64,000 bases of DNA from a virus. Taxonomy: Duplodnaviria > Heunggongvirae > Uroviricota > Caudoviricetes. A program made the position numbers and the translations under genes. Below are positions 3,122-23,006 of the stretch, piece after piece. The first letter of the stretch is position 1, and every line of letters starts with the position of its first letter. The DNA is taken from the IMG/VR virus record IMGVR_UViG_3300010279_000462. One strand, written 5' to 3'. Below the pieces are notes generated by a model that had not been told where the DNA came from, made no database searches, and was given only the letters and a program-made list of their open reading frames with translations.

Positions 3122-3331
3122 ATGGAAAAGGAAACACTGGTCGTTCACTGGGTCGAACACAAGAATCAAAGTCCGCCTGAGCGCAGGCACAACCGCAGTC
3201 ACGCTGACCCCACGGCAGATGCCGCCATCGGTCATGTGCTGCTGGAAGAACGCAGGAAGAAACACAAAAAGAAGCCCCGCACCGGAGTGTGGCGGGCAAA
3301 GGAGGAGCCGGATGAGGGAGAGCGAGGTTGA
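3122..3331 (+). CDS. small hypothetical protein
   Basis: 69-aa ORF between the DUF932-like and VRR-NUC genes. It overlaps the VRR-NUC start. Weak call. Confidence 0.3.
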   Translation: MEKETLVVHWVEHKNQSPPERRHNRSHADPTADAAIGHVLLEERRKKHKKKPRTGVWRAKEEPDEGERG

Positions 3332-3716
3332 GCGGCAGTTCGTGGAAGCTGTGAGGGCCGCCGGAGGGCAGGCCCTCAAATTTACGAGCCAGAGCATGAA
3401 CGGCGTACCTGACCGGCTGGTGCTGCTCATTGGCGGCAAGTGCGCCTTTGTAGAGCTGAAGGCGCCCGGCAAGCAGATGCGGCTTCTTCAGCGCAAACGC
3501 CGACAGCAGTTGGAAGCACTGGGCTTCCCTGTGTTCTGCGTGGACCGCCCGGAGCAGATCCAGCCCGCCATCGATGCACTGCTGCAATGGAATCCCGGTG
3601 AGCCGATTCCACAGGGCATCGGAGCAAAGATCCCGGAGATGCCGCGTGTCACGCTCTCGGAGCAAGCCACGCTCCCGGAGCAAGCCGCGCTCCCGGAAAA
3701 GGGGGACAGCACATGA
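3312..3716 (+). CDS. VRR-NUC domain nuclease
   Basis: RBS AAGGAGGAG precedes ATG 3312. Motifs DRLVLLIGGKCAFVELKAPGKQMRLLQ...LGFPVF are typical of VRR-NUC. Confidence 0.8.
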   Translation: MRESEVERQFVEAVRAAGGQALKFTSQSMNGVPDRLVLLIGGKCAFVELKAPGKQMRLLQRKRRQQLEALGFPVFCVDRPEQIQPAIDALLQWNPGEPIPQGIGAKIPEMPRVTLSEQATLPEQAALPEKGDST

Positions 3717-5119: not shown

Positions 5120-5836
5120 ATGAGCAAGATTCTATTTCTGAACGAAACCGACCGAAACGCATCGTATAAGACGGAGTACCGATATAAGACCGCCAAGCCG
5201 GTGAAGGCAGCCAAACCCAAGCGGGATGATGCCGGCTTCATCATCCCTTACGCAATGTTCCGTCCCATCCGGGAGCTGGGTCTGATCTGCGAGCTGCTGG
5301 GGGACACCCCGGTGCGCCGCAGTGCCGACCTCAAGATGAACCTTGACTATCTGATGAAGGAAGCCTACGAACACGCCATCGAGCAGATCATGTGCGGTGT
5401 CCGCTTGCAGGAGGTCCGCTGCCAGATGCAGTTCAATGCGGAAGACCGGGCATGGGAGCATTACACCCGGCTGCGGGAGAAGGGGCAGTACGCAGTCATG
5501 CCTTCGGTCACGGTGGAGGAACGCCGCCGGGTCATCCTTGGCGCGATCACTTGGAAGTATGACTGGATTCAGAAGCACAAGAAGTGGTGCTTCCAGTTCG
5601 CCGATGCGGTCATCACAAGAGAGAAGAACGGCGGCACGGAGAGCTGGAGCCAGTCCCAGTTCATTGAGAAGTTCATTCAGGTCGCAGATTCTCTGCCGGA
5701 AGCCAACCGACGACTGCTTGACCAACTGTACGAGACGGCTTGGGAGGTTATCCAGATTTATCGGTACGATGCTGATCCCTGCCAAGTGCCGGCTCCCTGG
5801 TATGACAAGAAGGAGGAAAACGATGCAGCAGAGTAA
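5120..5836 (+). CDS. hypothetical phage protein
   Basis: 238-aa ORF with good coding density. No recognisable motif. Confidence 0.5.
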   Translation: MSKILFLNETDRNASYKTEYRYKTAKPVKAAKPKRDDAGFIIPYAMFRPIRELGLICELLGDTPVRRSADLKMNLDYLMKEAYEHAIEQIMCGVRLQEVRCQMQFNAEDRAWEHYTRLREKGQYAVMPSVTVEERRRVILGAITWKYDWIQKHKKWCFQFADAVITREKNGGTESWSQSQFIEKFIQVADSLPEANRRLLDQLYETAWEVIQIYRYDADPCQVPAPWYDKKEENDAAE

Positions 5837-6212
5837 CACATTGCCGGCAGTTAAGAGCTTGTCGGAAGTTAAGACCTTGCCGGCAGCCAAGACCCCGTCG
5901 GCAGATAAGACTTTCCAGCCGCAGGAGAACCCTGAATGCTACGAGAACCTGGCGAATGCCATTGTCTTGCAGGCGTTCAAGGACTATAAGCGCGCACTGT
6001 GGAAGCTGTCACATGATCCGTATGACATTGACGCCGCAAGAAATAAGAAGAAGCTGGATCGTTTCTTCGATTCCAACTGGTATCGGCTGCTCACGGATGT
6101 GGATGCCGCTATTCTGGTGGGAGAAGCAAAGCGTCAGGTAGAGGACAGGTACGAGAAGCAGCAGAGGGCGATCCAGAGGTCGCGGGCGAGAAGAGCTGCC
6201 TTTGCCATGTAA
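5823..6212 (+). CDS. hypothetical phage protein
   Basis: Starts MQQSNT with RBS AGGAGGAAAACG upstream. It sits in the long ORF 5397-6212 but in the frame that follows the 5120-5836 gene. Confidence 0.45.
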   Translation: MQQSNTLPAVKSLSEVKTLPAAKTPSADKTFQPQENPECYENLANAIVLQAFKDYKRALWKLSHDPYDIDAARNKKKLDRFFDSNWYRLLTDVDAAILVGEAKRQVEDRYEKQQRAIQRSRARRAAFAM

Positions 6213-6243
6213 AACAAAGTCGGTCAGGAAGGAGGGCTTGACC

Positions 6244-6792
6244 ATGAACGAGGAAGCAAGCAACGCACAGGAAATCACAAAATCCGAACACTACATGGAA
6301 AAAGCCAGAGAACTGGCCGATTCCTATCCGCGTCTTCTGGAAAAGCGGCGGGAGCTGAAAGAGCAGATCGATGAATCTGCTGCTTGGCTGTACACACGGG
6401 ACGAGGTCATCTACAAGCTGTCGCAGGGTGCGCATGAGCAAGGTGAGCGCGTCAAGACAAGCGGCACTTCCAACCCGGTGGAGCGCACGGTCCTCAACTG
6501 CGACAAGGTGATGGCCTCCATGAACCGGGAAATCCTGAAACAGCGGGACGCCGAGCTGATGGAGCCGTACCGCCGAGTCTGCGAGGACATCGAGTTGTTT
6601 GAAATCGGCTTGCGCAGTCTGAAAGGGCAGACCCGGCAGGTTGCTCAGGAACTTTTCGTGCAGCGGAAAGCCATCCCTGCCGTGACGGATGCTGTCGGCA
6701 AACCCATCGGCCGAAAGACCGTGGAGGCTGAACGGGAGAGGGCACTTGCCGGCATTGCTAAGACCTTGGAACGATTGGAGGTGGCAGTTTGA
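6244..6792 (+). CDS. hypothetical phage protein
   Basis: Starts MNEEAS with RBS GGAAGGAGGG. 183 aa. Confidence 0.5.
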   Translation: MNEEASNAQEITKSEHYMEKARELADSYPRLLEKRRELKEQIDESAAWLYTRDEVIYKLSQGAHEQGERVKTSGTSNPVERTVLNCDKVMASMNREILKQRDAELMEPYRRVCEDIELFEIGLRSLKGQTRQVAQELFVQRKAIPAVTDAVGKPIGRKTVEAERERALAGIAKTLERLEVAV

Positions 6793-7241
6793 AAAACACA
6801 GAGGAAGTCACAGAGGAGATGAGCCGTCTGGTCATCTCGCTGTGCGATAAATACCGCAGGATTTACACGGAGGAGCTGAAAGCCAAGGCGGAACTTCACG
6901 ACTATGCAAAGTCCTCAGCGGAGGCGGTCTATCCCAAGGAAAAGGAAATGTACGAGAAGCTCTCCGCCGATGCTTCTACACGGTGTCTGATGGCCTATCA
7001 GTGGCGGCGGGACTTCAACATTGCCTTGCAGAAGGTGGAACCGCTCAAGGCAAGGCTGGTGCTGGAGCAGCACTTGATCCACGGAATGCCCCTGAAAGCC
7101 ATTGTCGGTGATCGTGGCAAAACCATGGGAAGAACCACTGCATCGCGCTACAAGCAGATCGGAATCTGGGCTTTTGCCGGGGAACTGGAGAAGATTCTCC
7201 CGGAGCTGGACAACAAGGAAAAATATATCTACGAAAAGTGA
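6789..7241 (+). CDS. putative phage transcriptional regulator (ArpU/sigma-region-4-like HTH)
   Basis: 150 aa. C-terminal HTH-like segment LKAIVGDRGKTMGRTTASRYKQ. Located at the end of the early operon. Assignment is tentative. Confidence 0.4.
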   Translation: MKNTEEVTEEMSRLVISLCDKYRRIYTEELKAKAELHDYAKSSAEAVYPKEKEMYEKLSADASTRCLMAYQWRRDFNIALQKVEPLKARLVLEQHLIHGMPLKAIVGDRGKTMGRTTASRYKQIGIWAFAGELEKILPELDNKEKYIYEK

Positions 7242-7291
7242 ACACTTTGGGTCAATGTGGAACGTCAAAGGAACACTTTGGAACATTTTTC

Positions 7292-7323
7292 TTGTTTACG
7301 GTACGTCTGCTTTTTGCTATAAT
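7292..7323 (+). promoter_or_regulatory. putative sigma70-like promoter (TTGTTT ... TATAAT)
   Basis: -10 TATAAT at 7318-7323 with a -35-like TTGTTTAC upstream. Spacing is slightly long. Confidence 0.3.
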
Positions 7324-7355
7324 TTATACTGGAAAAGCTGGATAGAGAGCGATGT

Positions 7356-7394
7356 GCCGAAGCGGTCAGATGTGACCTCGCTTCGGCTTTTTTG
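7356..7394 (+). terminator. rho-independent terminator-like hairpin
   Basis: GCCGAAGCG...CGCTTCGGC stem followed by TTTTTTG. Confidence 0.5.
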
Positions 7395-7520
7395 TTCTCC
7401 TTTTCTCCATTTACGAACATGAATTCCCATATGAATTCTCCATTTTCCGCTATCTATCCGGCTTTCTTTTACATCACAAATCCTCTCTACGAATCCCATC
7501 CACGAAAGAGGTGAACAGAA

Positions 7521-8120
7521 ATGGGTCGAAAGAATAAGAATGGGCGTCCGAAGCCCCATGTGAATAAGTACATCAACCAGAAAGGCAAGCTGCTCAAGAA
7601 GCAACCGTCGCTCAAGAAACGAATGCTCCCTCGCAAGGAGCGCAGCACACTGAAGGCGGAGGCAGAGATTATCTCTAAGGTGACCGCTCCTGCGCCGCAG
7701 TCGGTACGCCGGTTTGAGATCTGGTTTGCCGAGCTTGGCAACCATTACGGCAGCTCCGTGCAGAGCGGCAGCCGTCCGGTGCTGGTCATGAGCAATGATG
7801 TGGCAAACCACTACTCCAGCACCTTGACGGTGATCCCGATGACCACCGTGATGAAAAAGCTGGAACTGCCCACGCACATCCCGGTGTCGGAGGCGGATTG
7901 CCAGATGTACGGCAGCCACACCTATCTGCGGGAGTCTATCGCTCTGGCAGAACAGGTCACGACCATCGACAAGAAAGCCCTGCGCAATGTCCTGTGCCGA
8001 GTGACCTCTGCCGAAAAGCAGAAGGAAATCGAGCAGGCACTTGCGGGCTTCTTCAATATGGCTGCTGCGAACACAGTGGCACCTGATACCACTACCAACG
8101 AGGAGGCGAGAACATGGTAG
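7521..8120 (+). CDS. MazF/PemK-fold toxin-like protein with Lys/Arg-rich N-terminal extension
   Basis: Core FEIWFAELGNHYGSSVQSGSRPVLVMSNDVANHYSSTLTVIPMTT...LPTHIPV matches the PemK/MazF pattern. There is an N-terminal ~60-aa basic extension. RBS AAGAGGTGA. Confidence 0.65.
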   Translation: MGRKNKNGRPKPHVNKYINQKGKLLKKQPSLKKRMLPRKERSTLKAEAEIISKVTAPAPQSVRRFEIWFAELGNHYGSSVQSGSRPVLVMSNDVANHYSSTLTVIPMTTVMKKLELPTHIPVSEADCQMYGSHTYLRESIALAEQVTTIDKKALRNVLCRVTSAEKQKEIEQALAGFFNMAAANTVAPDTTTNEEARTW

Positions 8121-10516
8121 ACATCAAGAACATCCCGGTCAAGCTGAAAAATGACTGCCGGTTCTGCGTCTGGAAGTTTGAGAAGCGCAGCGGGCAGAAA
8201 ACCAAGATGCCGTATAACCCGGCAACCTCAGAACGCGCCAAAATCAACGACCTGCGCACCTTTGCGGATTTCAAGACCACCCTGATGACCTATGCGATGG
8301 GCGGTTTTGACGGCATCGGCATTGCGGTCGGCAACGGCATCGGCGCATTCGATATCGACCATTGCATTCGAGAGGACGGTACGCTGAATGACACAGCGGC
8401 GACCGTCCTTTCTATTTTCCCCTCGGCATATGTGGAGAAGTCTCCGTCCGGCCAAGGACTGCGCGGCTTCTTCTGTGTGCCGGAAGACTATGTTTTCGAT
8501 AAGACGGTCTATTACATCAACAATCGGAGCAAAGGGCTGGAAGTGTATATGCCCGGTGCGACAAACCGCTTCGTCACCGTGACGGGAGATGTTTACCGCA
8601 CAGGCGAGATTCCCAATGACCCGGAAGCCATGACCACGCTGCTTGATTCGCTGATGAAGCGGTCGAAGCAGGTGCAGAACAATCAGCTGCGCCACCACTC
8701 CTACCTGAGCGACGATGCGGTCATTGCACACGCAGAGGAAGCCGGCAACAGTGATAAGTTCAAAAAGCTGTATGCCGGTGACTGGCAGGAGCTTTATGAC
8801 AGTCAGTCTGACGCAGATATGGCAATGCTGTCTATTCTGGCTTTCTGGTGCGGGTGTGATGAGGAACAGATGGACCGCATCTTCCGCACCTCCGGCTTGA
8901 TGCGTGACAAGTGGGATCGCAAACAGGCCGGAACGACCTATGGTGCAATCTCCATCCGAAACGCTGTCAACACGGCGACTTCTGTCTATGTGCCGGTCAA
9001 CGCACAGGATATCGTGGACGAGGAGTTTTCCAATCTCGACCCGGAAGCAAAAAGTCCAGAGTATCAGCCGGATATCTCCAAGCTGACCCTGTCTCTGGAG
9101 GAGATGGCTCCGCACACGAACCCCCGCTATGGCAGAGATGAGATCGGTATGGGCAATATGTTCGCCGATTTCTTCAAGCCAATTGCCCGATACAACAGTG
9201 AGCGCGGCATCTGGTATGTCTATGACGGGAAAGTCTGGCAGCCGGATATGGAAAACCTCAAAGTTGCAGAGCTGGCAAAGCTGCTGGCGGACAAGCTGTA
9301 TGTGTTCGCCTTGACGATCACAGAGGAGGACACCAGAAAACGGTTCATCGACCGAGTGAAAAAGCTCCAGCTGCGCAAACACCGGGAGACGATGCTGAAA
9401 GATGCGAAGTCTGTGTTCCCTCTGTCCATGCGCAGTTTCGACAGCGATATTTACCTGTTCAACTGTCAGAACGGAACGCTTGATCTGCGCACGATGGAAT
9501 TTCGGGAACACCGCCCGGAGGACTATCTCACAAAGGTCTCCCCGGCTGTGTATGACCCGGAAGCGGACTGCCCGCGTTGGCGAACCTTTATTTCGGAGAT
9601 CATGCAGGACGACAAGGCGAGAGCAGACTATCTGCAGAAAGCCATCGGCTACGCTTTGACCGGCGACACACGAATGGAGTGCTTGTTCATCCTGTACGGC
9701 CCGACTTCCCGAAACGGTAAAGGCACGACGATGGAGAGCATCCTGCGCATCATGGGAGAGTACGGCAAGAACGCTGACCCGACCATGCTGCAAGCGAAGT
9801 TCAATGCACAGAGCGGCGGCCCTTCTGAGGAAATCGCGCGTCTTGCCGGCGCACGGTTCGTCAACATCTCGGAGCCTGCAAAGAAACTGACAATCGATGC
9901 GGCTTTGACTAAACGACTGACCGGCAACGATACAATCACGGCCCGGTATCTGCATGAGAACAGCTTCGAGTTTCGTCCGAACTTCAAAATCTTCATCAAT
10001 ACCAACCACCGTCCGAATATCACGGACCTTACGCTGTTCGATTCAGGTCGAATCAAGATTATCCCTTTTGACCGGCATTTCAGCGAGAGCGAGCAGGATA
10101 AGGACCTGAAGACCACATTTGCAAAGCCAGATAATATGTCCGGCATTCTGAACTGGATGCTGGAAGGCTACAGGCTGTTCCGCAGCCAAGGACTGGAAAT
10201 GCCGGACTCTGTCATCAATGCGACTGAGGACTACCGCAAGGCATCGGATAAGATCGCACAGTTCTGCGAAGCGTGTCTGGTGTCAAAGCCGGGGTCTATG
10301 CTGCGAAGTAAATCGGTTTACAACCGATACAGGCAGTGGAGCGAGGCCAATGGTTACCACGCGGAAGGTGTAAAAGGCTTCAAAGAGGAATTCAAGAAAC
10401 ACTACAAGGAAGATCGCCGCAGACCCAGTGATGGTGGGGAGAAAACCACGGTGGTTCTTGATGTGGACTTTTTGGTGGACGATGATGATCCACCTCCTGA
10501 AATTATCCCTGTATGA
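8114..10516 (+). CDS. primase-polymerase / P4-family primase with C-terminal SF3-type helicase
   Basis: N-terminal prim-pol-like DGIGIAVGNGIGAFDIDHC. C-terminal Walker A ILYGPTSRNGKGTT typical of the phage/plasmid primase P4 C-terminal domain. Confidence 0.85.
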   Translation: MVDIKNIPVKLKNDCRFCVWKFEKRSGQKTKMPYNPATSERAKINDLRTFADFKTTLMTYAMGGFDGIGIAVGNGIGAFDIDHCIREDGTLNDTAATVLSIFPSAYVEKSPSGQGLRGFFCVPEDYVFDKTVYYINNRSKGLEVYMPGATNRFVTVTGDVYRTGEIPNDPEAMTTLLDSLMKRSKQVQNNQLRHHSYLSDDAVIAHAEEAGNSDKFKKLYAGDWQELYDSQSDADMAMLSILAFWCGCDEEQMDRIFRTSGLMRDKWDRKQAGTTYGAISIRNAVNTATSVYVPVNAQDIVDEEFSNLDPEAKSPEYQPDISKLTLSLEEMAPHTNPRYGRDEIGMGNMFADFFKPIARYNSERGIWYVYDGKVWQPDMENLKVAELAKLLADKLYVFALTITEEDTRKRFIDRVKKLQLRKHRETMLKDAKSVFPLSMRSFDSDIYLFNCQNGTLDLRTMEFREHRPEDYLTKVSPAVYDPEADCPRWRTFISEIMQDDKARADYLQKAIGYALTGDTRMECLFILYGPTSRNGKGTTMESILRIMGEYGKNADPTMLQAKFNAQSGGPSEEIARLAGARFVNISEPAKKLTIDAALTKRLTGNDTITARYLHENSFEFRPNFKIFINTNHRPNITDLTLFDSGRIKIIPFDRHFSESEQDKDLKTTFAKPDNMSGILNWMLEGYRLFRSQGLEMPDSVINATEDYRKASDKIAQFCEACLVSKPGSMLRSKSVYNRYRQWSEANGYHAEGVKGFKEEFKKHYKEDRRRPSDGGEKTTVVLDVDFLVDDDDPPPEIIPV

Positions 10517-13583: not shown

Positions 13584-13806
13584 GGTGATTGGCGTGTTCC
13601 CGATGTTCAACACCGGGGGCATCTGTGTACATGAGATTGACCACGCAGAGGACAAAATTCTTGCTTCCATGAACGGGGAGAACCCGGAGTGGTATCCGAT
13701 TACGGAAAAGCCGCAGTCGGAGATGGGCGGGGATGGCGATGACTTGGAGTCGGGCTTTTTGTTCGGCTCCTTTTTCGTGCCGTTCTCTGAGGTCATGCGC
13801 GTGTGA
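13573..13806 (+). CDS. small hypothetical protein
   Basis: 77-aa ORF that overlaps its neighbours at both ends. Confidence 0.35.
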   Translation: MGNKVIGVFPMFNTGGICVHEIDHAEDKILASMNGENPEWYPITEKPQSEMGGDGDDLESGFLFGSFFVPFSEVMRV

Positions 13807-15086
13807 AGGAGGACTACATGAAAGCAACCGCTGAACTGAAAATGCTGCCGGTATCTGTACTCAAGCCGGCCGCATACAATCCCCGGAAAAAGCTGAAGCC
13901 GGGGGATAAGGAGTACGAGAAGATCAAGAACTCCATCACGGAGTTCGGGTTTGCCGACCCGCTGGTGGTCAATGCCGATATGACAATTATCGGAGGACAC
14001 CAACGCCTGACTTGTGCGATTGATATGGGCTATACAGAAGTGCCTTGTGCGGTGGTGGACATCGACAAGACCAGAGAGAAAGCTCTGAACATTGCGCTCA
14101 ACAAAATCACGGGCGCGTGGGATGACACCCTGCTGGCCGACCTGCTCAAAGACATCGAAGAATCCAACTTCGATCTGGGCAAGACTGGATTTGAGCCGCC
14201 TGAAATCGAGACGCTGTTCAACAAGGTCCACAGCAAAGAAGTCAAGGAAGATGACTTTGATGTGGAGTCCGAGCTGAAGCAGCCGTGCTTCTCCAAAGCG
14301 GGCGACCTCTGGATGCTGGGCAAACACAGAGTTCTGTGCGGCGATTCCACCAAGGCAGAATGCTACGATACCCTGATGGACGGAGTAAAAGCCAACCTCG
14401 TGCTTTCGGACCCTCCGTACAATGTGGATGTGGAAGAAACGGCTGGCAAGATCATGAACGACAACATGGGCGACTCGGAATTTTACGAGTTCCTGCTGGC
14501 AGCGTTCAAGCAGATGCACGGACATCTGGCGGATGATGGCTCCATCTACATCTTCCATGCAGACACCGAAGGGCTGAACTTCCGAAAGGCATTCAAGGAT
14601 GCCGGGTTCTACTTGTCGGGGTGCTGCATCTGGAAGAAAAACGCACTGGTGCTGGGCCGCAGCCCTTACCAGTGGCAGCATGAGCCGTGCCTTTACGGGT
14701 GGAAGCAGAAAGGTAAGCACCAGTGGTATTCCGACCGCAAGCAGACGACAATCTGGGAGTACGACCGTCCGAAAGCCAATAAGGATCATCCGACCATGAA
14801 GCCCATTGGTTTGATGAGCTATCCTATCCGCAATTCCACCATGACCAACGGCATCGTCCTTGACCCGTTCCTCGGCAGTGGTTCGACCCTGATCGCCTGT
14901 GAGGAGACCGACCGCGTCTGCCGAGGTATTGAGCTGGACCCGAAGTTCGTGGATGTCATCGTGAAGCGGTATATCGAACACAGCGAAGGCCGCTATGAGG
15001 ATGTGTATGTCCTTCGGGATGGCCAGAAACTGAAGTTCGATGAGGTCGCTTCCTTTGAGCCGGAACAGGAGGCCGCAGATGGCTGA
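13803..15086 (+). CDS. ParB-like nuclease domain fused to an amino (N6-A/N4-C) DNA methyltransferase
   Basis: N-terminal ParB-N motif (PLVVNADMTIIGGHQRL). DPPYN (motif IV) precedes FLGSGST (motif I), which is the beta-class order. Confidence 0.85.
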   Translation: MKEDYMKATAELKMLPVSVLKPAAYNPRKKLKPGDKEYEKIKNSITEFGFADPLVVNADMTIIGGHQRLTCAIDMGYTEVPCAVVDIDKTREKALNIALNKITGAWDDTLLADLLKDIEESNFDLGKTGFEPPEIETLFNKVHSKEVKEDDFDVESELKQPCFSKAGDLWMLGKHRVLCGDSTKAECYDTLMDGVKANLVLSDPPYNVDVEETAGKIMNDNMGDSEFYEFLLAAFKQMHGHLADDGSIYIFHADTEGLNFRKAFKDAGFYLSGCCIWKKNALVLGRSPYQWQHEPCLYGWKQKGKHQWYSDRKQTTIWEYDRPKANKDHPTMKPIGLMSYPIRNSTMTNGIVLDPFLGSGSTLIACEETDRVCRGIELDPKFVDVIVKRYIEHSEGRYEDVYVLRDGQKLKFDEVASFEPEQEAADG

Positions 15087-15849
15087 TGCAAAATGTGTCC
15101 TCATCCACGATAACTTCCAGAACTTCAAGTCCTACAACATCCCCAAGGCACAGCTGGTGATCGCCGACATTCCGTACAACATCGGAACGGACTTCTACGC
15201 CAGCCGGCCGGACTGGTATGTGGGCGGGGACAACAAGAACGGCGAGAGCAATAAGGCACGGAAGGCGGCGTTCAATACCGACTTCACCTTCAACATCGCA
15301 GAGTACTTCCACTTCTGCAACCGGCTGCTGAAGAAGGAGCCGGCAACAGGAGAGAAGGGTGCGCCCTGTATGATCGTGTTCTGCGCGTTCCAGCAGATTC
15401 CGAAGGTCATCACCGAAGCGGAGAAGTACGGCTTCAAGAACTACATCCCGCTGACCTTCTGCAAGAACTACAGTCCGCAGGTCTTGAAGGCCAACATGAA
15501 GATCGTGGGTGCAACGGAGTATGCGCTGGTGCTGTACCGCAGCAAGCTTCCGAAGTTCCGCAACCTCGGCGAAGACGGCAAGCCCCACATGATCTTCAAC
15601 TGGTTCGACTGGAAGCGGGACGGCAAGGACTATCCGAAGATCCATCCTTCCCAGAAGCCAGTGTCCGTGCTGAAACGCCTGATTGAGATCTTCACCGACC
15701 CCGGCGATGTGGTCATTGACCCCTGCGCCGGAAGTGGCTCGACCCTTCGTGCTGCAAGAGAGCTGGGGCGGGATAGCTACGGATTTGAAGTGTCTAGAGA
15801 TTTCTACCTGAAAGCCAGGGAGCAGATGCTCGGAGAGGAGGCCGTATGA
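15079..15849 (+). CDS. DNA amino-methyltransferase (beta class)
   Basis: DIPYN motif IV and DPCAGSGSTL motif I. ATGGCTGA overlap with the upstream gene. Confidence 0.8.
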   Translation: MADAKCVLIHDNFQNFKSYNIPKAQLVIADIPYNIGTDFYASRPDWYVGGDNKNGESNKARKAAFNTDFTFNIAEYFHFCNRLLKKEPATGEKGAPCMIVFCAFQQIPKVITEAEKYGFKNYIPLTFCKNYSPQVLKANMKIVGATEYALVLYRSKLPKFRNLGEDGKPHMIFNWFDWKRDGKDYPKIHPSQKPVSVLKRLIEIFTDPGDVVIDPCAGSGSTLRAARELGRDSYGFEVSRDFYLKAREQMLGEEAV

Positions 15850-18047
15850 GCAAGGAACAGAATATGACGCTGACCCTCGGAAGTCTGTTTTCAGGCTCCG
15901 GGGGTTTTGAATTGGGAGGGCTTCTTACCAATCAAATCGTGCCGGTATTCAATTCGGAGATTGAACCATTTGCCATCCGGGTCACGACCAAGCGTCTGCC
16001 GGAGGTCAAGCATTACGGAGATGTGTCTGCCCTGAACGGTGCAGACCTGCCACCTGTGGACATCATCACCTTTGGCAGTCCTTGTCAGGATATGTCCATT
16101 GCTGGCAAGCGAGATGGTCTGGATGGTTCACGGTCCAGCCTGTTCTATGAAGCAATCCGAATCGTGAAGGAAATGAGGTGTAAGACCAATGGAGCAAAAC
16201 CAAGATTTATCGTGTGGGAGAATGTGCCGGGCGCCTTCTCCTCCAACAAAGGACAAGACTTCAAGGCAGTCCTCGAAGCCGTCATCGGTGTTAAAGAACC
16301 GTCCGCCGAGGTGCCTGCGCCTGATAAAAAAGGCTGGCCCGACGCTGACTACTATCTGGGAGACGGATGGAGCGTCGCGTATCGAGTTCTTGATGCGCAG
16401 TGGTGGGGCGTGCCCCAACGCCGAAAACGCATCTACCTTGTCGCAGATTTTACAGACCACAGTGCCCCCAAAGTACTATTTGAGTCCGACGGCCTGTCTG
16501 GGTATTCTGCGGAGAGCTTCCGTGCGTGGCAAAGAGCTGCCGCCTGTGCTGAAGACAGCACTGGAACGGCAGGCGGCTGCGGAAGAATCTGCCTGAACGA
16601 CCAAGGCGGGGCGCAGATGGATGTGTCCGAAGAAGTGACCGGGACACTCCGTGCGCAGGAGCATGGGCATCAGCCCTGCGTCCTTGAAGCGGCTGGTTTC
16701 TGTACGGAACACTCCGCCAATGCCAGAAGCATCGGGTACGAGGAAGAACGGTCGCCTACACTCCGGGCCGGCGTTGTGCCAGCCGCCATTGCACTGGAAA
16801 ATCATCCGACCGACAGCCGGGTGAAGATTTCCAAGGATGGCATGGTGCAGACGCTGACCAGCCGGTGCGGCACGGGCGGTGGGAACGTTCCTCTGATCAT
16901 GGATGGCGCGGAGAATCCTCCAGCGGTCACCTTGAAGATCCGTTCCGGGTGCGAGGGTGGCGGCAAGGGAGCCATCTGGCAGGAGGACAAGTCCGCCACT
17001 CTTGGCTGTAATAACGACCAGACAGTTTTCGTGCCGAAGTGCTACGGTGTCTGCTCGAAAGCCAGCCATTCCATGATGAGCGACAATCCGCACAGCGGCT
17101 TCTATGAAGCCAGCACTTCCCGGACGCTGGATTGCAGCGGCGGTGACCCGACCTGTAATCAGGGTGGGCTGTGTATCTGCGAACCTGTTGTCTGCGTGGA
17201 TCAGGGCGGCGGCAAGTCCAACTGTACGGTAGACGAACAGGTTGCACCGCCGCTCGCCTGTACCCATGGAGGTTCACCGGCTGTGGCATTCACGCAGAAC
17301 CAGCGGGATGAAGTCAGAGATCTGGGCGAGAAAGCCGGCTCCCTGTCCGCACAGCCGGGAATGAAGCAGCAGACCTTCGTGGCGCAGCCGGAGGATGTGA
17401 CCGCGTTCCATGTGAACCAACGCAATGAACTCATTGACCTGCACGGAAAGTCCGGCGCGCTCATGGCGACCCGGAGCGACCAGATGCAGACCTTCGTGCT
17501 GCAGGGCAGCATGATCGGGCGCAGTGATGAGAACGGTCCGCAGGGGGATGGCATCAATGAGGATGTCTGCTTCACCCTGGATGCCACTGACCGTCACGCT
17601 GTTTGCGCTTCCAAGGATGTGTACGCTATGACCACCGGCTCCTTCATGAAGGTGGAGGAGAATGTGTCTCCAACCCTTATGGCGAGGGACTATAAAGACC
17701 CGACCACCATCGCGCCGGTGCCGCAGGATATCAGCTACACGGTCCGCCGCCTGACCCCGACCGAGTGTGCCCGGCTGCAGGGCTTTCCGGATTGGTGGTG
17801 CAGTGACCTCGAAACCGAGAATCCCACGGAAGCGGATATGGCTTTCTGGCAGGATGTGTTTGAAACGCACCGCAGACTTGTGACCCATGCCAAGAAGCCG
17901 AAAACGGAGAAGCAGATCCGCAAATGGCTGGCTGACCCGTATTCGGATGCGGCAGAGTATAAGCTCTGGGGCAACGGCGTTTCTTTGCCCATAGTTTTTT
18001 TCGTTCTAAGTGGCATCGTATGGGCAGCAAATAAGGATTTTTGTTAA
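15846..18047 (+). CDS. DNA (cytosine-5)-methyltransferase with a very large variable region (733 aa)
   Basis: Motifs FSGSGGF (I), GSPCQDMS (IV), ENVPG (VI), TECARLQGFPDWW (IX) and GNGVSLP (X) are present. The final ~24 codons are supplied by the RIT left inverted repeat. Confidence 0.85.
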   Translation: MSKEQNMTLTLGSLFSGSGGFELGGLLTNQIVPVFNSEIEPFAIRVTTKRLPEVKHYGDVSALNGADLPPVDIITFGSPCQDMSIAGKRDGLDGSRSSLFYEAIRIVKEMRCKTNGAKPRFIVWENVPGAFSSNKGQDFKAVLEAVIGVKEPSAEVPAPDKKGWPDADYYLGDGWSVAYRVLDAQWWGVPQRRKRIYLVADFTDHSAPKVLFESDGLSGYSAESFRAWQRAAACAEDSTGTAGGCGRICLNDQGGAQMDVSEEVTGTLRAQEHGHQPCVLEAAGFCTEHSANARSIGYEEERSPTLRAGVVPAAIALENHPTDSRVKISKDGMVQTLTSRCGTGGGNVPLIMDGAENPPAVTLKIRSGCEGGGKGAIWQEDKSATLGCNNDQTVFVPKCYGVCSKASHSMMSDNPHSGFYEASTSRTLDCSGGDPTCNQGGLCICEPVVCVDQGGGKSNCTVDEQVAPPLACTHGGSPAVAFTQNQRDEVRDLGEKAGSLSAQPGMKQQTFVAQPEDVTAFHVNQRNELIDLHGKSGALMATRSDQMQTFVLQGSMIGRSDENGPQGDGINEDVCFTLDATDRHAVCASKDVYAMTTGSFMKVEENVSPTLMARDYKDPTTIAPVPQDISYTVRRLTPTECARLQGFPDWWCSDLETENPTEADMAFWQDVFETHRRLVTHAKKPKTEKQIRKWLADPYSDAAEYKLWGNGVSLPIVFFVLSGIVWAANKDFC

Positions 18048-18064
18048 ATTATGAGCCGATAAAA
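17976..18064 (+). repeat. RIT left terminal inverted repeat
   Basis: 17979-18004 is the exact reverse complement of 21601-21626. Imperfect similarity continues inward to about 18064. Confidence 0.7.
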
Positions 18065-18098
18065 TTCCATGATACCAACCTTTTATGATAGCTGAAAA

Positions 18099-18130
18099 GC
18101 CGGTAAAAGTAAGACCTTACTTTTACCGGC
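18099..18130 (+). promoter_or_regulatory. perfect 15-bp-arm palindrome in the ritA leader, followed by TGTATAAT
   Basis: GCCGGTAAAAGTAAG-AC-CTTACTTTTACCGGC. TATAAT lies 8 bp downstream. Confidence 0.4.
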
Positions 18131-18183
18131 TCAGCCTGTATAATGATGTTAGTACCGAACATACAGATTAAAGGTGAGGCATA

Positions 18184-19443
18184 ATGGACAATTTTCTAAC
18201 TGAGACTTCTTCAGCGAAAGTTAAAGACACTCCTACAACTTATACCGTAAAGTCCTTGGTAGAGGACGCAACGACATTTCTTCAATCCAGGGGTGACTAC
18301 CGTGACCGCGTAGTGAACTATATCAAGGGAACATGGCATCAATTTGAAAATTACTGCGAAACCAATAGCATTTTATTCTACCAGTCTGAATACAGTAACA
18401 GATTCATTGAAAGCCTTTCTATTGGTTTACAGCCTCTCAAACCGGAAACCATTAAGCGTAAGGTGGGCAATCTTAAAATGCTCGACCTGTACGCAAAAAA
18501 TGGCACATGGGAGAAGGATGCATTAGATTCCAAACCTAACCTTGAAGCGGAATTTTCTGAATTCATCGCAGCACAGGATGAGTTCTTAAAAACACGTCAC
18601 TATTCGAAATTTTCTTGTGAAACCATTTGTAAACAGACAACAGCTGTACTGAATTATCTTCAGAATAATGAAATCACCAGTTTCTCGGAAATCACTAGTG
18701 ATATCATTTCTGACTATGCTATTTCACTGAAGGGTCATGCAAAAAGTACTATGCGCTGTGAACTCAGCCGAATTAGACAGATTTTGCATAATGCCTACCT
18801 TCTAAAGTATACCGCTGATGATTTGTCCACTTACGTCCCAACGTACAATCTTGGCCAACCCCAAAGCAATGTTAAAATATGGCATTCTAGCGAGATAAAC
18901 AGAGTTCTGTCTGCGGTGGATCGGTCAAATCCTAAAGGTTTGCGGGATGCCGCTTATATCACCATTGCAGCAGAACTTGGGATGCGAAGTAAGGACATTA
19001 CTGACCTTAAGCTTTCGGATATTGATTGGGAAACTTGCACTATCTCGTTTGTCCAGAGCAAAACCGGGAAAGTCAATCCCCTTCCGCTTAATGAAAAAAT
19101 TGGCCGCGCCATTATTGACTATCTGAAAGTCAGACCCGATACGGATTGTGAATACCTATTTGTGAATATGAATCCTCCGTATGGCAAAATGAAGTCGTTC
19201 AATTCATCATTTAACAAGTATGTCAGCCGCTCCGGAGTCACTATTCCTGTTAATGCTCACCATAATCTTCACTCGCTCCGGGCTACCGTTGCGACCAAAC
19301 TTTTGAAAGAGGGCGTATCTCCTGACGATATCGTTTCTTTTCTGGGGCATTCCGACAGGGAGTCGCTTCACAACTATATCCGTATGGATATAGACAGCCT
19401 CCGAAATTGTGCATTGTCTTTTGAGAATGGTGAGTTTGTATGA
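18184..19443 (+). CDS. ritA: tyrosine recombinase RitA-like
   Basis: 419 aa. RBS AGGTGAGG. Motifs HSLRAT...LGHSD...LHNY (R-H-R-Y). Confidence 0.8.
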   Translation: MDNFLTETSSAKVKDTPTTYTVKSLVEDATTFLQSRGDYRDRVVNYIKGTWHQFENYCETNSILFYQSEYSNRFIESLSIGLQPLKPETIKRKVGNLKMLDLYAKNGTWEKDALDSKPNLEAEFSEFIAAQDEFLKTRHYSKFSCETICKQTTAVLNYLQNNEITSFSEITSDIISDYAISLKGHAKSTMRCELSRIRQILHNAYLLKYTADDLSTYVPTYNLGQPQSNVKIWHSSEINRVLSAVDRSNPKGLRDAAYITIAAELGMRSKDITDLKLSDIDWETCTISFVQSKTGKVNPLPLNEKIGRAIIDYLKVRPDTDCEYLFVNMNPPYGKMKSFNSSFNKYVSRSGVTIPVNAHHNLHSLRATVATKLLKEGVSPDDIVSFLGHSDRESLHNYIRMDIDSLRNCALSFENGEFV

Positions 19444-20420
19444 TGCGGGTTTACAAATACACAAGTGGACTATCCACACAGATACAATCCTTTATAGAGG
19501 AAAAGCGTGCTCTTGGATGCAAGTATGAAAAGGAGGCCAAAGTCTTTTATGAAATGGACAGATTTCTAGTTAGGGAAGGAGTTGTTGAGCCAATCCTCAC
19601 TCAGAATGTGGTTGAAAAATGGGTAGAGAAGCGTCCCAACGAGAAAAGAAAAAATCAACGTTGGCGACTAAATTTTACCAAGCGTTTTGTAGCTTATCTT
19701 CTGCTTCACCACTATGAAGCGTATTATCCTGAATACAAAATTTCCTCAAGCGATGACAAATGCTTCGTGCCATACATTTTCACAAACACGGAAATTGGCG
19801 ACCTTATTGCATATTTTAATACCATGAAGCCAAGTAGACAGTATCCTAATGGCCATATCGTACTTCCCTTACTGTTTCTAACACTTATATGCTGTGGGTT
19901 GCGGTCTGGTGAAGTTGCATCGCTTACAGTTAATGATGTTGATATTAAAAACGGCATTCTCACAATCAGAAATGCCAAGCACGGGAAAAGTCGCAGTATT
20001 CCTATTTCTGAAAGTATGTGCCTCAAATATGCTGAATACTATGATTTACTCCATACTAACAGCGACGGTAAGGATTATTTCTTCCCGAATGCACGTGGCA
20101 ACTGTCATCACACCAATGAAATCGAACGCAGATTTAAGGAGGCGCTATGGAACTGCGGCATTCCTTATAAAGGACGCGGTTATGGTCCTAGAGTCCATGA
20201 TCTTCGCCATACTTTTGCAGTTCGCGCCATGCAGAAGATTCGGAAGGAAAAAGGAAGTAATCTTATGGCACTTCCATATCTGTCAGTCTATTTAGGGCAC
20301 TACAACATGAACAAAACACAGCAATATTTGCACCTTGTTGTGGATGCATATCCAGAATTAATTGAGAAGCAGCAAGATTACCTTGGCGAAACAATACCAG
20401 TATGGGAGGTTTCAGAATGA
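19440..20420 (+). CDS. ritB: tyrosine recombinase RitB-like
   Basis: 326 aa. ATGA overlap with ritA. Motifs RHTFAVRA...LGHYNMNKTQQY. Confidence 0.8.
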   Translation: MMRVYKYTSGLSTQIQSFIEEKRALGCKYEKEAKVFYEMDRFLVREGVVEPILTQNVVEKWVEKRPNEKRKNQRWRLNFTKRFVAYLLLHHYEAYYPEYKISSSDDKCFVPYIFTNTEIGDLIAYFNTMKPSRQYPNGHIVLPLLFLTLICCGLRSGEVASLTVNDVDIKNGILTIRNAKHGKSRSIPISESMCLKYAEYYDLLHTNSDGKDYFFPNARGNCHHTNEIERRFKEALWNCGIPYKGRGYGPRVHDLRHTFAVRAMQKIRKEKGSNLMALPYLSVYLGHYNMNKTQQYLHLVVDAYPELIEKQQDYLGETIPVWEVSE

Positions 20421-21436
20421 GAACACCGGACTTTTCAAAATACTTAACGATGTTCCTTGAACACTATCTTCCAGAACTTAAGAATGCCAGCGAGAATACC
20501 TTGGCAACATACAGCGACACTTTCTGCTATTTTCTAACTTATTGTCAGGATGTGGAAGCAATGAAAATTGAGCGAATGTCGGTCAGTGATTTCACTGCGG
20601 AACTTGTTGAAAGATACCTGCACTGGATGGAAACAAGCCAAGGCAATAGTCTTGCAACTCGGAATAACCGACTGGCTACAATCCATTCTTTCGTTAGATT
20701 TTTGCAGCCCAGGGAACCAAAACTGCTACTCAACTTTCAGAAGATTCTTGCAATTCCAACAAAGAAAGCACCACAAAAAACTGTGCAGCCTCTCTCAAAG
20801 GAATCTGTCGCTGTACTACTTCGTCAGCCAGACACATCTACTCTCAAGGGAAGAAGGGATGCAACTGTTCTATGCGTGTTGTATGATACGGCTGCTCGTG
20901 TATCGGAAATCTGCAATCTCCGCATAGAGGATGTGCGGTTTGAGAATCCTCCGCATATTCGCATAATGGGAAAAGGAATGAAAGTGCGTACAGTTCCTAT
21001 TTTGCCAGCGACAGCTATAAACTTAAAAAGCTACCTTATAGAAACGCATCGATTAAAGCCTGAGTGCTATCACTTGCCTCTTTTCGTTAACCGTGATGGA
21101 GAACCCTTTACACGGTCCGGAATCAGGTATATTTTAAACAAATACGTCAAAATGGCCCATGAAATAGATCCATCTATTCCCGAAAGTCTTAATCCCCATC
21201 GTATCAGACATACCAAGGCAATGCATCTATATGAGGCGGTTGATGACCTTATCGATGTCCGTGATTTTCTCGGCCATGCTGATATAAAAACTACAAGTAT
21301 CTACGCTAGATCCAGTCTTGCCAAAAAGAGGAAGGCACAAGAGAAGATTTCGAATTCTCCTGTGCCTGAGATGGCATCTTGGCAACAGGATAAAGGCACA
21401 CTCGAATGGCTTAAAAACTATGGGCGCAAGAAATAG
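20417..21436 (+). CDS. ritC: tyrosine recombinase RitC-like
   Basis: About 339 aa. RBS GGGAGG 7 nt upstream. ATGA overlap with ritB. Motifs HRIRHTKAM...LGHADIKTTSIY. Confidence 0.8.
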   Translation: MRTPDFSKYLTMFLEHYLPELKNASENTLATYSDTFCYFLTYCQDVEAMKIERMSVSDFTAELVERYLHWMETSQGNSLATRNNRLATIHSFVRFLQPREPKLLLNFQKILAIPTKKAPQKTVQPLSKESVAVLLRQPDTSTLKGRRDATVLCVLYDTAARVSEICNLRIEDVRFENPPHIRIMGKGMKVRTVPILPATAINLKSYLIETHRLKPECYHLPLFVNRDGEPFTRSGIRYILNKYVKMAHEIDPSIPESLNPHRIRHTKAMHLYEAVDDLIDVRDFLGHADIKTTSIYARSSLAKKRKAQEKISNSPVPEMASWQQDKGTLEWLKNYGRKK

Positions 21437-21540
21437 CAACGGAGCCCCAAATTATAGCAGGCAGATCAGGATAATTCTTGATCTGCTTTTTTATTGGTAT
21501 ACACCATTACCTATTTGATACTGACTGTAAGGGAGGCGGA

Positions 21541-21629
21541 TTTTATTGGCTTATTTTCTATGACAAATCTTTATTATATGCCCAAACTATTCCAGATAAG
21601 ACGAAAAAAACTATGGGCAAAGAAACACC
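21541..21629 (+). repeat. RIT right terminal inverted repeat
   Basis: Reverse complement aligns with 17976-18064. The outer 26 bp are exact and the inner part is imperfect. Confidence 0.7.
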
Positions 21630-21651
21630 ATTATCGGTTGCAATACATAAT

Positions 21652-21729
21652 GGCGTCGCACTGCCATGTGTCTATTTTGTGCTGGCCGGCATCGTGTGGG
21701 CGGCGCAGAATGCCGAGGAAACCCAATAA
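21652..21729 (+). pseudogene. displaced native 3' end of the C5-MTase gene (encodes GVALPCVYFVLAGIVWAAQNAEETQ*)
   Basis: About 70% nt identity to the element-borne MTase 3' end at 17976-18040. Its protein tail parallels GVSLPIVFFVLSGIVWAANKDFC*. Confidence 0.55.
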
Positions 21730-21859
21730 AACGGCCTGCTGTATGATGAGGTACCAGAACCCCATGATACAGTGGGCATACATATCGGATGATCCTGCAC
21801 AACCGTGTCTGGCACGATTTGTGTAATGGGTCGAACATGAGAAATGTCGAAAAATGGCC

Positions 21860-21890
21860 TTGCTATTTCATCGATTCAGAGCAATATATG
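21860..21890 (+). promoter_or_regulatory. promoter cassette copy (TTGCTA-N17/18-ATATAT)
   Basis: TGGCCTTGCTATTT, same family as copies at 23161, 25060 and 27084. Confidence 0.5.
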
Positions 21891-21923
21891 TGCTACCGAA
21901 AATAAAGAAGGGAGCACAAAACC

Positions 21924-23006
21924 ATGAAAAAGTACGTTTTGAACATCGATGACCGCAAGGCACTGGTAGGCCGCCTGATGGAGCTGACTGGGCTGAGTTC
22001 CCAGTACACCTATATGCCGCGGTGTGCCTACCTTGTCGGCAACTACACCGTTGAGAAGGAGGGAACGCTTGTGACGGACGAAACCGCAGACCAGCAGGTC
22101 ATTGAGACCCTGCTGAACGAGGGCATCATCGTGGACCCTGATATGCCGACCCAGCAGCCGAGTGTGGCAGAAGCACCGCAGGACGAGATGCCCGGCGAGG
22201 TGACCGAACAGACCGATGCCGAGGAGGAAGCAACCGCCGAGGAATCCTCGGATGTTGAGGAAACCGATGACGAGGAGGAAGATGACACCCCTGATGAATC
22301 CACGGAGTCCGAAAGCGAGGATGTGGATGACCTGACGGTCAGCGTTCCTATGGCGGGTCACACTCCACAGAGCATCCGCAACTTCCTGAACCTGATGTAC
22401 AGCCGCGGACCGCTGCTGAACAAGGCTCTGGGAACGAATTTCTCGGTATCGGATGCTTTGCTGGAAGCCTTGGATCAGGCGACCATCCGCACGGTGAATG
22501 AGATGCTGGATGAGCTGGAGGAGTACCGCCTCGGTGCGGGAGATACCGGCATGACCGGCATCCTCATCCTGCCGGATAAGATCAGCCTGTGCTTCGCCGG
22601 ACCGCTGAGTTCGGAACAGGTGCGCGTCTGCACCCAGCTGACTTCCGCCATGAACCGCATGGCGATCACCCAGAAGCGGATTCAGGCAAAGACCGTGAAC
22701 GATGAGAACGAGAAGTACGCTTTACGCATCTGGCTCATCCGCTTGGGTCTGAATGGCAACGAACACAAGGAACTGCGCAGAGTCCTGATGCAGAACCTTT
22801 CCGGCCATGCCGCCTTCCGCACGGCAGAGGAAGCTGAGAAGTTCCGTATCAAGGAAAAGGCAAAGCGCGACAAGCTGAAAGCCGCGAAACAGGCGGCACA
22901 GGGCGGCGACGCCGATGCCGGGGAAACGGGCGAGGCGGAAGCAGACGCGCCCACACAGCCCGACTGTGGGGCGGACACGGCGCAGATGCTGGAAGCGGGA
23001 GCGTAA
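21924..23006 (+). CDS. protein with amidoligase C-terminal-like domain and acidic linker (paralog of the downstream amidoligase C-terminus)
   Basis: C-terminal ~110 aa (…NDENEKYALRIWLIRLGLNGNEHKELRRVLMQNL…) align with the amidoligase C-terminus (…TDNEKYAMRCWMLRLGFIGDEFKTAREILLRNM…). D/E-rich segment in the middle. Confidence 0.6.
   Translation: MKKYVLNIDDRKALVGRLMELTGLSSQYTYMPRCAYLVGNYTVEKEGTLVTDETADQQVIETLLNEGIIVDPDMPTQQPSVAEAPQDEMPGEVTEQTDAEEEATAEESSDVEETDDEEEDDTPDESTESESEDVDDLTVSVPMAGHTPQSIRNFLNLMYSRGPLLNKALGTNFSVSDALLEALDQATIRTVNEMLDELEEYRLGAGDTGMTGILILPDKISLCFAGPLSSEQVRVCTQLTSAMNRMAITQKRIQAKTVNDENEKYALRIWLIRLGLNGNEHKELRRVLMQNLSGHAAFRTAEEAEKFRIKEKAKRDKLKAAKQAAQGGDADAGETGEAEADAPTQPDCGADTAQMLEAGA

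Follow-up and report, generated by a model that had tools for sequence, protein, structure and literature searches.

A recombinase-in-trio (RIT) element of 3,676 bp (positions 17981–21656, plus strand) was identified in IMG/VR virus record IMGVR_UViG_3300010279_000462, a stretch of 64,000 nucleotides referred to here as the window. Genes for terminase, portal, major head protein, primase, helicase and endolysin identify the window as the genome of a phage, which is present in samples ERZ27241763, ERZ27241764, SRR5190303 and SRR5190129. The element has very probably been integrated by site-specific recombination into a phage C5 cytosine methyltransferase gene at the N-G-V codons of motif X. Integration into the 3′ end of a gene, with a complementing copy of that end supplied by the element, had been proposed in an earlier reading of the letters alone (the sequence-only reading), which named an empty site, an excised circle and further copies abutting methyltransferase 3′ ends as the evidence to look for. 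The proposal is now supported by an empty site in a relative, other copies at the same codons and a circular contig.

Structure of the interrupted gene and its empty site

The methyltransferase open reading frame (ORF; 15846–18047, plus strand, 733 aa; PF00145 at 3.9e-42, TIGR00675 dcm) is chimeric. Up to 17980 it is derived from the phage, with the upstream 711-codon body intact, and the last 22 codons and the stop (17981–18047) come from the left inverted repeat (IR-L) of the element. Its translation ends in KLWGNGVSLPIVFFVLSGIVWAANKDFC, i.e. WGNGVSLPIVFFVLSGIVWAANKDFC, before the stop, which bears out the earlier claim that the gene reads into IR-L and that the new end covers motif X (GNGV). 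GC content falls to about 0.41 (0.39–0.45) across approximately 17.9–21.6 kb, against about 0.58 on either side.

From left to right the element consists of IR-L, ritA, ritB, ritC, the right inverted repeat (IR-R) and a terminal palindrome. Its insertion point is at the motif X codons, where the left 8-mer AACGGCGT (17973–17980, plus strand) encodes N-G-V and is the putative crossover region on the methyltransferase side (attL). IR-L (17981–18065, plus strand) encodes the replacement tail SLPIVFFVLSGIVWAANKDFC and a stop codon in the methyltransferase frame. IR-R (21540–21624, minus strand) encodes a second replacement tail, SLPIVFFVLSGIVWAYNKDLS and a stop, on its reverse complement, which reads NGVSLPIVFFVLSGIVWAYNKDLS to the stop, so that both ends of the element hold a copy of the tail. 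The inverted repeat arms (17973–18065 and 21540–21632) are 93 nt long and 77% complementary, with an alignment score of 81 against 15 ± 2.5 for shuffled sequences. The terminal palindrome (21625–21656, no strand assigned) comprises an inner 8-mer ACACCATT, which is the reverse complement of AATGGTGT, a 16-nt centre ATCGGTTGCAATACAT and an outer 8-mer AATGGCGT (21649–21656), the latter being the putative crossover region on the remnant side (attR). This layout recurs in relatives, for example as CCGTTATGTGTTGCAACACATAATGG and CTGTTATGTTGAGCTTCACATAACAG, and in the circular contig described below the palindrome sits between IR-R and IR-L; the 20-nt 'spacer' also belongs to the element. Beyond the palindrome lies the displaced native 3′ end of the methyltransferase gene (the remnant; 21657–21729, plus strand), which together with the outer 8-mer (21649–21729) encodes NGVALPCVYFVLAGIVWAAQNAEETQ and a stop.

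The boundaries were obtained by comparison with L138, a syntenic phage contig without the element that carries an uninterrupted methyltransferase gene and is 93% identical to the left flank and 94% identical to the right flank (from 21649). Its genes are ordered as S-adenosylmethionine synthetase, HNH, ParB-methylase, methylase, C5-methylase, a homolog of ORF 21924–23006, amidoligase, DpnD-PcfM and GGACT. Both AACGGCGT (17973–17980) and AATGGCGT (21649–21656) align to a single AACGGTGT at L138 6613–6620, and since the two window 8-mers collapse onto one, the insert is 3,676 bp long. The empty site of the window locus is predicted to read GAGTATAAGCTCTGGGGCAACGGCGTCGCACTGCCATGTG. The sequence-only reading had held that the native 3′ end survives just outside IR-R, and the remnant is indeed orthologous to the gene end in L138 and in proteins P0121 and P0122 (97% identical). 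It had also allowed that homologous phages might naturally end in the IR-L type; the opposite was found, as P0121 and P0122 both end in WGNGVALPCVYFVLAGIVWAAQSTEEAQ, which is of the remnant type. An uninterrupted motif X followed by a tail was found in 26 viral contigs.

Related elements at the same codons in other genes

RitA homologs were gathered from genomes, viral contigs and metagenomes, which gave approximately 100 related loci. In these the RIT relatives directly follow G-N-(G/S/A)-(V/I/C) codons of PF00145 genes, and the copies abutting methyltransferase 3′ ends that had been suggested as a check were thus found. In every subgroup one end of the element adjoins (E/R)Y(K/R)x(W/L)GN(G/S/A)(V/I/C), the motif X of a PF00145 gene. 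At the opposite end there is a near-palindrome of 32 nt, and reading outward from it a tail of native type is encoded, for example NSVAIPCVEFIMSRIAAALL or NGVALPCVCFVLAGIAWVI, each with its stop codon. At least 30 different C5-methyltransferase genes are hit at the same codons. Pseudobacteroides cellulosolvens ATCC 35603, an isolate, has this structure as well, on a 6.9-Mb contig of its genome (L019).

The element was found in both orientations. A tally of 85 loci of the two commonest subgroups (RitA 55–56%) contained 21 with the order methyltransferase, RIT, palindrome and remnant and 16 with the mirror image; it included 28 different junction peptides on the gene side and 33 different remnants, and all but two ends could be assigned to one type or the other. 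One and the same RitA protein (P0007) is encoded by elements of either orientation (L142 as against L143 and L145). The opposite-orientation junction of the window element is predicted to read CTCTGGGGCAACGGTGTTTCTTTGCCCATAGTTTTTTTCGTCTTATCTGG. Each junction lies within approximately 100 nt, so the conclusions on junctions are independent of long-range assembly.

It should also be noted that two short contigs, one from a Methanocorpusculum metagenome-assembled genome (MAG; L018) and one from a Bacteroides MAG (L008), carry RIT relatives of the Clostridia-associated clade. This placement is probably due to mis-binning of a multi-copy element, with transfer as the alternative. In the isolate assemblies of Flintibacter muris DSM 110149 (L011, NODE_94) and Vescimonas sanitatis MH37-1 (L013, L021) the element forms its own contig or lies at the ends of contigs, which is the behaviour expected of a repeat in many copies; the Flintibacter contig is element-sized (3,510 nt) and its record name gives a coverage of 434, for which a genome-wide baseline is lacking.

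Replacement tails

Pairwise alignment of 17976–18040 with 21652–21716 gave 39 identical positions out of 65 (60%), and the similarity described in the sequence-only reading therefore stands at a lower figure than the 70% or so given there. The string GGCGT, which it had placed at both junctions, is shared as part of the full 8-mer (AACGGCGT / AATGGCGT). With 41/66 the ungapped match ranks third over both strands of the window, after the query itself (17973) and IR-R, and lies about 7 standard deviations above the background (16.2 ± 3.5). Of the 23 mismatches between the tail-coding stretches 15 fall at third codon positions, and the replacement tail has 14 of 23 residues in common with the native one and keeps its hydrophobic pattern. 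The similarity is diverged coding homology rather than chance. That the repeat resembles its target, as had been suggested, holds in the window clade; in the commonest human-gut clade the resemblance does not extend beyond the 8-mer.

Between IR-L and the reverse complement of IR-R, 17 of 75 nucleotides differ, 11 of them at third positions, and only three of 25 codons change the residue; as few amino-acid changes were not obtained in any of 5,000 simulations with random placements. The repeats of L019 differ at eight positions, all third positions, with no amino-acid change. The same test was not significant for L131, of the commonest subgroup (P = 0.11). These mostly synonymous repeat differences, together with the native residues kept, support the view that a working tail may be under selection in both orientations in the window clade, and the chimeric methyltransferase may retain activity.

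It could instead be supposed that a mobile element aimed at motif X carries its tail only incidentally, the ORF being merely ended and the methyltransferase inactivated or crippled, with no selected complementation. This is considered unlikely. In the window clade the native residues and the hydrophobic pattern are kept, the 711-codon gene body remains intact and third-position differences predominate (11/17 in the window, 8/8 in L019), a pattern that constraint by DNA binding alone hardly explains. It is favored by the result for L131 and by the tails of the commonest subgroup and of the RIT element on plasmid pHG1 (see below), which are unlike the native ones.

Circular form and proposed mechanism of integration

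One contig, L022, has a 55-nt direct terminal overlap and closes into a 3,531-bp circle carrying ritA-B-C, with the junction IR-R-ACACTGTT-ATGTTGAGCTTCACAT-AACAGCGT-IR-L. It belongs to the commonest subgroup, in which inserts are exactly 3,531 bp in 24 integrated loci, and not to that of the window. An excised circle with the predicted junction, as called for by the sequence-only reading, has thus been found in a relative of the window element, for which the corresponding junction is predicted to be CTATGGGCAAAGAAACACCATTATCGGTTGCAATACATAATGGCGTTTCTTTGCCCATAG.

The 8-mer conforms to AAYNNNRT. At the left (gene-side) position in relatives it varies with the host gene, and host-type variants (AATTCGGT, AACGCCAT, AACTCTGT and others) were found at all three positions, namely at the gene junction, beside the remnant (14/60) and inside the palindrome beside the repeat (29/60). 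Both reciprocal 8-mer patterns were seen in clean loci (7 and 4). The simplest reading of these sequences is that cleavage at the 8-mer would be staggered and that the 8-mer would represent the overlap between the cuts, with heterology tolerated and host 8-mers carried off on excision. A fixed exchange point after the 8-mer, without reciprocal products, was ruled out by a tabulation that was not restricted to canonical 8-mers.

The 16-nt centre of the palindrome is asymmetric, and its orientation relative to the element is constant in 50 of 54 ends, both next to IR-R and next to IR-L. Such constancy would follow if one symmetric attP offered two 8-mers as alternatives for the crossover. The centre was inverted relative to the element in 4/54 ends, and in a tally limited to canonical 8-mers the inverted copies were L014, L077, L133 and L135; recombination between the flanking 8-mers or inversion of the element in place could be the cause.

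The proposed mechanism is that the excised form is a circle whose attP is two-fold symmetric, consisting of IR-R (antisense tail), 8-mer, 16-nt centre, 8-mer and IR-L (sense tail). Either 8-mer would pair as the crossover region with the same methyltransferase codons (attB), so that entry would be possible in either orientation. Whichever way round the element lies, the body of the gene would be fused in frame to a repeat-encoded hydrophobic tail and stop, and the native tail would be left behind the palindrome at the opposite end of the element. Mismatches in the 8-mer would be tolerated, and the element would carry host 8-mers away. RitA, RitB and RitC presumably divide the labor among them. 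As motif X is conserved at the protein level, its DNA would be a target that occurs widely and predictably among phages and other mobile DNA, and the burden on the carrier should be limited by the replacement tail.

A route through folded single-stranded DNA or a cruciform has to be weighed against this model. In such a route, as in integron attC sites or the CTX phage, the stem of an IR-R/IR-L hairpin would mimic the target, one strand would be exchanged and replication would resolve the product. The predicted circle junction of the window element does fold strongly (−37.2 kcal/mol, z = −9.6), and the breaking of unitigs exactly at the 8-mers would also fit. RIT elements of Sphingobium gave exonuclease-protected DNA with no circle junction, and hairpin intermediates have been proposed for them (PMC5737581). 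However, the circular contig has a junction of the double-stranded type, the repeats are just 77% complementary and would give a mismatched stem, and the 8-mers are found in both reciprocal arrangements, which two staggered exchanges with a heteroduplex overlap would produce. The folded-strand route is accordingly thought quite improbable.

The unitig breaks themselves were seen in L140 (8-mers at 1–8 and 3649–3656), which starts and ends with AACAGTGT, exactly at its two 8-mers. Logan contigs L003 and L004 both stop at the equivalent of window position 21630, so that the two outermost bases of the inner 8-mer are missing. These breaks suggest branching of the assembly graph at recombination sites, with several contexts per sample.

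The trio might also be read as a resident invertible switch of the phage, which would swap methyltransferase C-termini by inversion between IR-L and IR-R, rather than as an inserted element. Inverted repeats do flank the recombinases, both repeats encode a tail and both orientations occur in populations. This reading is nevertheless very unlikely, given that a close relative lacks the element wholly, that the same element is present in at least 30 different genes, that its GC content is foreign to the phage, that the palindrome centre follows the element and not the host in 50/54 ends, and that inversion would change nothing where the two tails are nearly identical. A chance or low-complexity origin of the similarity between 17976–18040 and 21652–21716, for which only the 60% identity and the T-rich runs in the region could be cited, is scarcely credible and is refuted by the match score some 7 standard deviations above the window background, the concentration of mismatches at third codon positions and the orthology of the remnant to the true gene end in relatives.

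Several observations weigh against site-specific integration with a complementing tail as the explanation of the window locus. The circle rests on one low-coverage metagenome contig of a different subgroup, and a tandem copy would look identical. The circle junction of the window subgroup was not found in viral contigs, in which a scan for the pattern GGCAAAGAA-N28-36-TTCTTTGCC returned 18 matches, all of them unrelated and due to chance. The methyltransferase gene of L138 (4484–6693) has a 14-nt deletion and a 10-N scaffold gap elsewhere and was called as fragments of 144 aa and 230 aa, which may point to a pseudogene or to an error of assembly. The tails of the commonest subgroup (YWDKAIMLMMGTKMA and YLIMVVMRRTDV, for example) are unlike the native tails (AIPCVEFIMSRIAAALL) and unlike each other, and at the pHG1 insertion, too, new and native tails are unrelated; complementation of function is thus not a general feature. 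Many of the loci are short-read contigs that cross a 3.5-kb repeat, such that the linkage of flank to end may be chimeric, and gene bodies were found at both ends in 12 contigs and remnants at both ends in five.

In loci with two remnants the palindrome and remnant lie at either end of the RIT, as in L005 (IMGVR_UViG_3300029698_000145; 5419–10477); L009, L012 and L135 are also double-ended. The downstream phage genes of L005 are mirror images as well, with 70–81% identity, and on just one of the two sides the remnant is separated from the neighbouring phage gene by a HicA/HicB toxin-antitoxin pair (9487–10112). Such double-ended loci are either chimeric assemblies through the multi-copy 3.5-kb repeat, which exists in both orientations, or real RIT-mediated inversions or fusions.

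Recombinase trio and the RIT element of pHG1

The three recombinase genes of the element lie on the plus strand and all match PF00589, and their products all carry the catalytic residues R..H-x-x-R..H/W..Y. The first, ritA (18184–19443), encodes a tyrosine recombinase of 419 aa with an N-terminal region of approximately 235 aa ahead of the catalytic domain; its residues R254, H359, R366 and Y398 are invariant among 25 homologs. The start of ritB (19440–20420, 326 aa) overlaps the end of ritA by 4 bp (ATGA), and its translation contains the catalytic motifs GLRSGE, HDLRH and LGHYNMNKTQQY. A second 4-bp overlap (ATGA) joins ritB to ritC (20417–21436), which encodes 339 aa from the ATG at 20417, with SAM-like N-terminal domains in addition to PF00589 and the catalytic motifs AARVSE, HRIRH and LGHADIKTTSIY. 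The longest ritC ORF begins at 20402, and homologs in L001–L004 were called as 339 aa. According to PMC8138268, RitA proteins contain a pair of core-binding domains, with which the long N-terminal region seen here would be consistent, and RitC proteins an additional helix at the C-terminus.

The trio was compared with that of pHG1, a plasmid named as rich in RIT elements by Van Houdt et al. (PMC3414803). RitA matched the first pHG1 gene over its full length (29% identity, E = 7e-44), RitB the second (33%, E = 9e-67) and RitC the third (45%, E = 6e-103), whereas matches between non-counterpart proteins reached 1e-14 at best. The order is the same and the sizes are similar (419/326/339 aa in the window, 420/327/336 aa on pHG1), with gene overlaps of 4 bp each in the window and of 8 and 4 bp on pHG1. 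NCBIfam has no model specific for RIT; it gave only sub-threshold Xer-like matches for the trio and a weak match to a 'gamma-mobile-trio' model.

RIT elements have three adjacent and overlapping genes in the order ritA-ritB-ritC over approximately 3.5 kb, terminal inverted repeats, a palindrome overlapping one end and multiple copies per genome (Van Houdt et al., 2009, 2012; PMC3414803). The window element agrees with this in its scale (3,676 bp), its 93-nt repeats and its 32-nt palindrome overlapping the element end. Movement as a unit into several contexts is indicated by the empty site, the range of target genes, the circular contig and the element-sized unitigs. By homology and architecture the element is thus identified as a RIT. 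Exact-protein look-ups added no new contexts, as RitC gave no record and RitA was found in the same phage context only. Megablast of 15846–22000 against phage and plasmid collections gave partial methyltransferase matches or none.

On the Cupriavidus necator megaplasmid pHG1 (L139, NC_005241.1; regions 3291–3351 and 6820–6854) a 35-nt repeat lies on either side of the trio. IR-L is bordered on the ritA side by a perfect palindrome of 32 nt, TAGCGC-AAATGTGCTGCAGCACATTT-GCGCTA, and TAGCGC is found again after IR-R. When the flanks are joined at one TAGCGC they are contiguous in 12 other Burkholderiaceae plasmids (85–91% identity, 99% length). The site lies at codon 445 of 484 in a 'site-specific integrase' gene (L167 2541–3992), directly after the catalytic-tyrosine ERY codons. 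The interrupted gene reads into IR-R, TTERY being followed across the junction by YRPKVFMC and onward to a stop codon, and the native end, beginning LGYRENCKLFDAV and running to its stop, is kept beyond the palindrome. An integrase gene and a gene for a 626-aa hypothetical protein precede the target integrase gene, and the three together are possibly a mobile module in their own right.

Comparison with known systems

The pHG1 element shares with the window its end architecture and its position within the 3′ end of a gene, and from these two families so far the architecture seems to be a general property of RIT elements. The window element differs from published RITs in that its target is defined at the nucleotide level (motif X) and its repeats are long (93 nt) and protein-coding; the hosts of its clade are gut Clostridia and their phages, whereas published RITs are from Proteobacteria.

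Phage 21 and e14, which integrate at icd, and integrases that use tRNA genes insert in the 3′ end of a conserved gene and supply a substitute end that preserves the gene, with the native end displaced downstream. Their integration depends on one lambda-type integrase with arm sites, has a single orientation and brings a single substitute copy. The window element resembles phage 21 and e14 in supplying an in-frame substitute end and displacing the native one downstream, but differs from them in having three simple Xer-like recombinases, a symmetric attP, two substitute copies and both orientations. It works like the elements that complement gene ends and is not one of them by recombinase type.

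In Tn916 and CTnDOT the coupling sequences tolerate heterology at the crossover, and flanking bases of the host enter the excised element; the host-type 8-mers inside the RIT palindrome appear analogous to these. Tn916 has low target specificity and uses one integrase and Xis, unlike the window RIT, whose position is fixed within a coding motif. Like the window element, Tn554, SE and GInt elements have several tyrosine recombinases, site-specific insertion and a circular form; unlike it, they have two recombinases with accessory proteins, carry cargo and belong to other families, and no repeat-encoded gene ends have been described for them (PMC10214605, PMC5385486). Both Tn554 and one RIT have been reported in radC (PMC3414803).

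Other features of the locus

The sequence-only reading had described IR-R and the remnant as a head-to-head palindrome centred on CCATTAT...ATAATGG. The palindrome itself is real and belongs to the element, being formed by two inverted 8-mers (AAYGGYGT) around the 16-nt centre. As a DNA structure the combination of IR-R and remnant proved weak: the two are complementary at 39 of 75 positions, and the strand 21580–21720 folded no better than shuffled sequences (z = +0.43). Only ACACCATTAT/ATAATGGCGT (9/10) is strongly palindromic, and this is part of the terminal palindrome conserved in relatives. What had been noted is mainly the terminal palindrome of the element together with a mirror image at the level of protein coding. 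The 38-codon ORF that had been placed at 21611–21729 does exist (38 aa, MGKETPLSVAIHNGVALPC at its start) and runs over IR-R, the palindrome and the remnant; its ATG is at 21613 (21613–21729, plus strand). No purine-rich ribosome-binding motif was found in the 20 nt upstream of it, and this putative ORF arises as a by-product of insertion.

Between IR-L and ritA lies a perfect 16-bp stem with a 2-nt loop (18098–18131, no strand assigned; 100% complementary). Lacking a T-tract, it was not called by the terminator scan; it might block transcripts or serve for the binding of a protein. Pairing with 18052–18064 is a further property of one portion (TGAGCCGATAAAA / TTTTACCGGCTCA). A terminator-like hairpin of 13 pairs with a T-tract was called by the same scan 3′ of ritC (21459–21498, plus strand).

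The interrupted gene is the last of three methyltransferase genes in a row with overlapping ends (13803–18047), encoding a ParB-N6/N4 methylase, an N6/N4 methylase and the 733-aa C5 enzyme, which is long and has repeated modules. In relatives an S-adenosylmethionine synthetase gene and an HNH gene precede the equivalent row. The row is a large anti-restriction module.

Implications for RIT elements

In the published accounts covered, the mobility and target specificity of RIT elements are untested and their mechanism is unknown (PMC3414803, PMC5737581). No description of RIT targeting to methyltransferases was found in literature on RIT elements, methyltransferases and recombinase trios that did not extend to Ricker et al. 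(2013), and an earlier mention is possible; an apparent lead, PMC4487195, proved irrelevant. The window locus and its approximately 100 relatives provide attL, attR, attB and attP at the nucleotide level, together with a candidate 8-bp crossover region, both orientations and a circular form, and thereby sequence-level evidence on target choice in a widespread and poorly understood class of elements. The element appears to ride phages and other mobile DNA by way of a protein-conserved stretch of anti-restriction methyltransferase genes, and in the window clade it would patch the interrupted gene from either of its ends. For annotation, loci in gut metagenomes that carry a 'methyltransferase and three integrases', and contig breaks or chimeras near them, may be explained by RIT insertion.

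It is suggested only tentatively, as a view that may well prove too broad, that all RITs share one mechanism. The excised junction would then be symmetric (tail mimic, 8-mer, centre, 8-mer, tail mimic), the targets would be codons of conserved motifs near the 3′ ends of genes (motif X here, ERY in pHG1), and the three recombinases would serve three kinds of half-site, namely the palindrome centre, the tail or tail mimic and the conserved upstream target codons. Were this so, it would explain both the presence of three recombinases and the movement of RIT elements, and RITs would constitute a programmable, orientation-independent integration system aimed at protein-constrained DNA.

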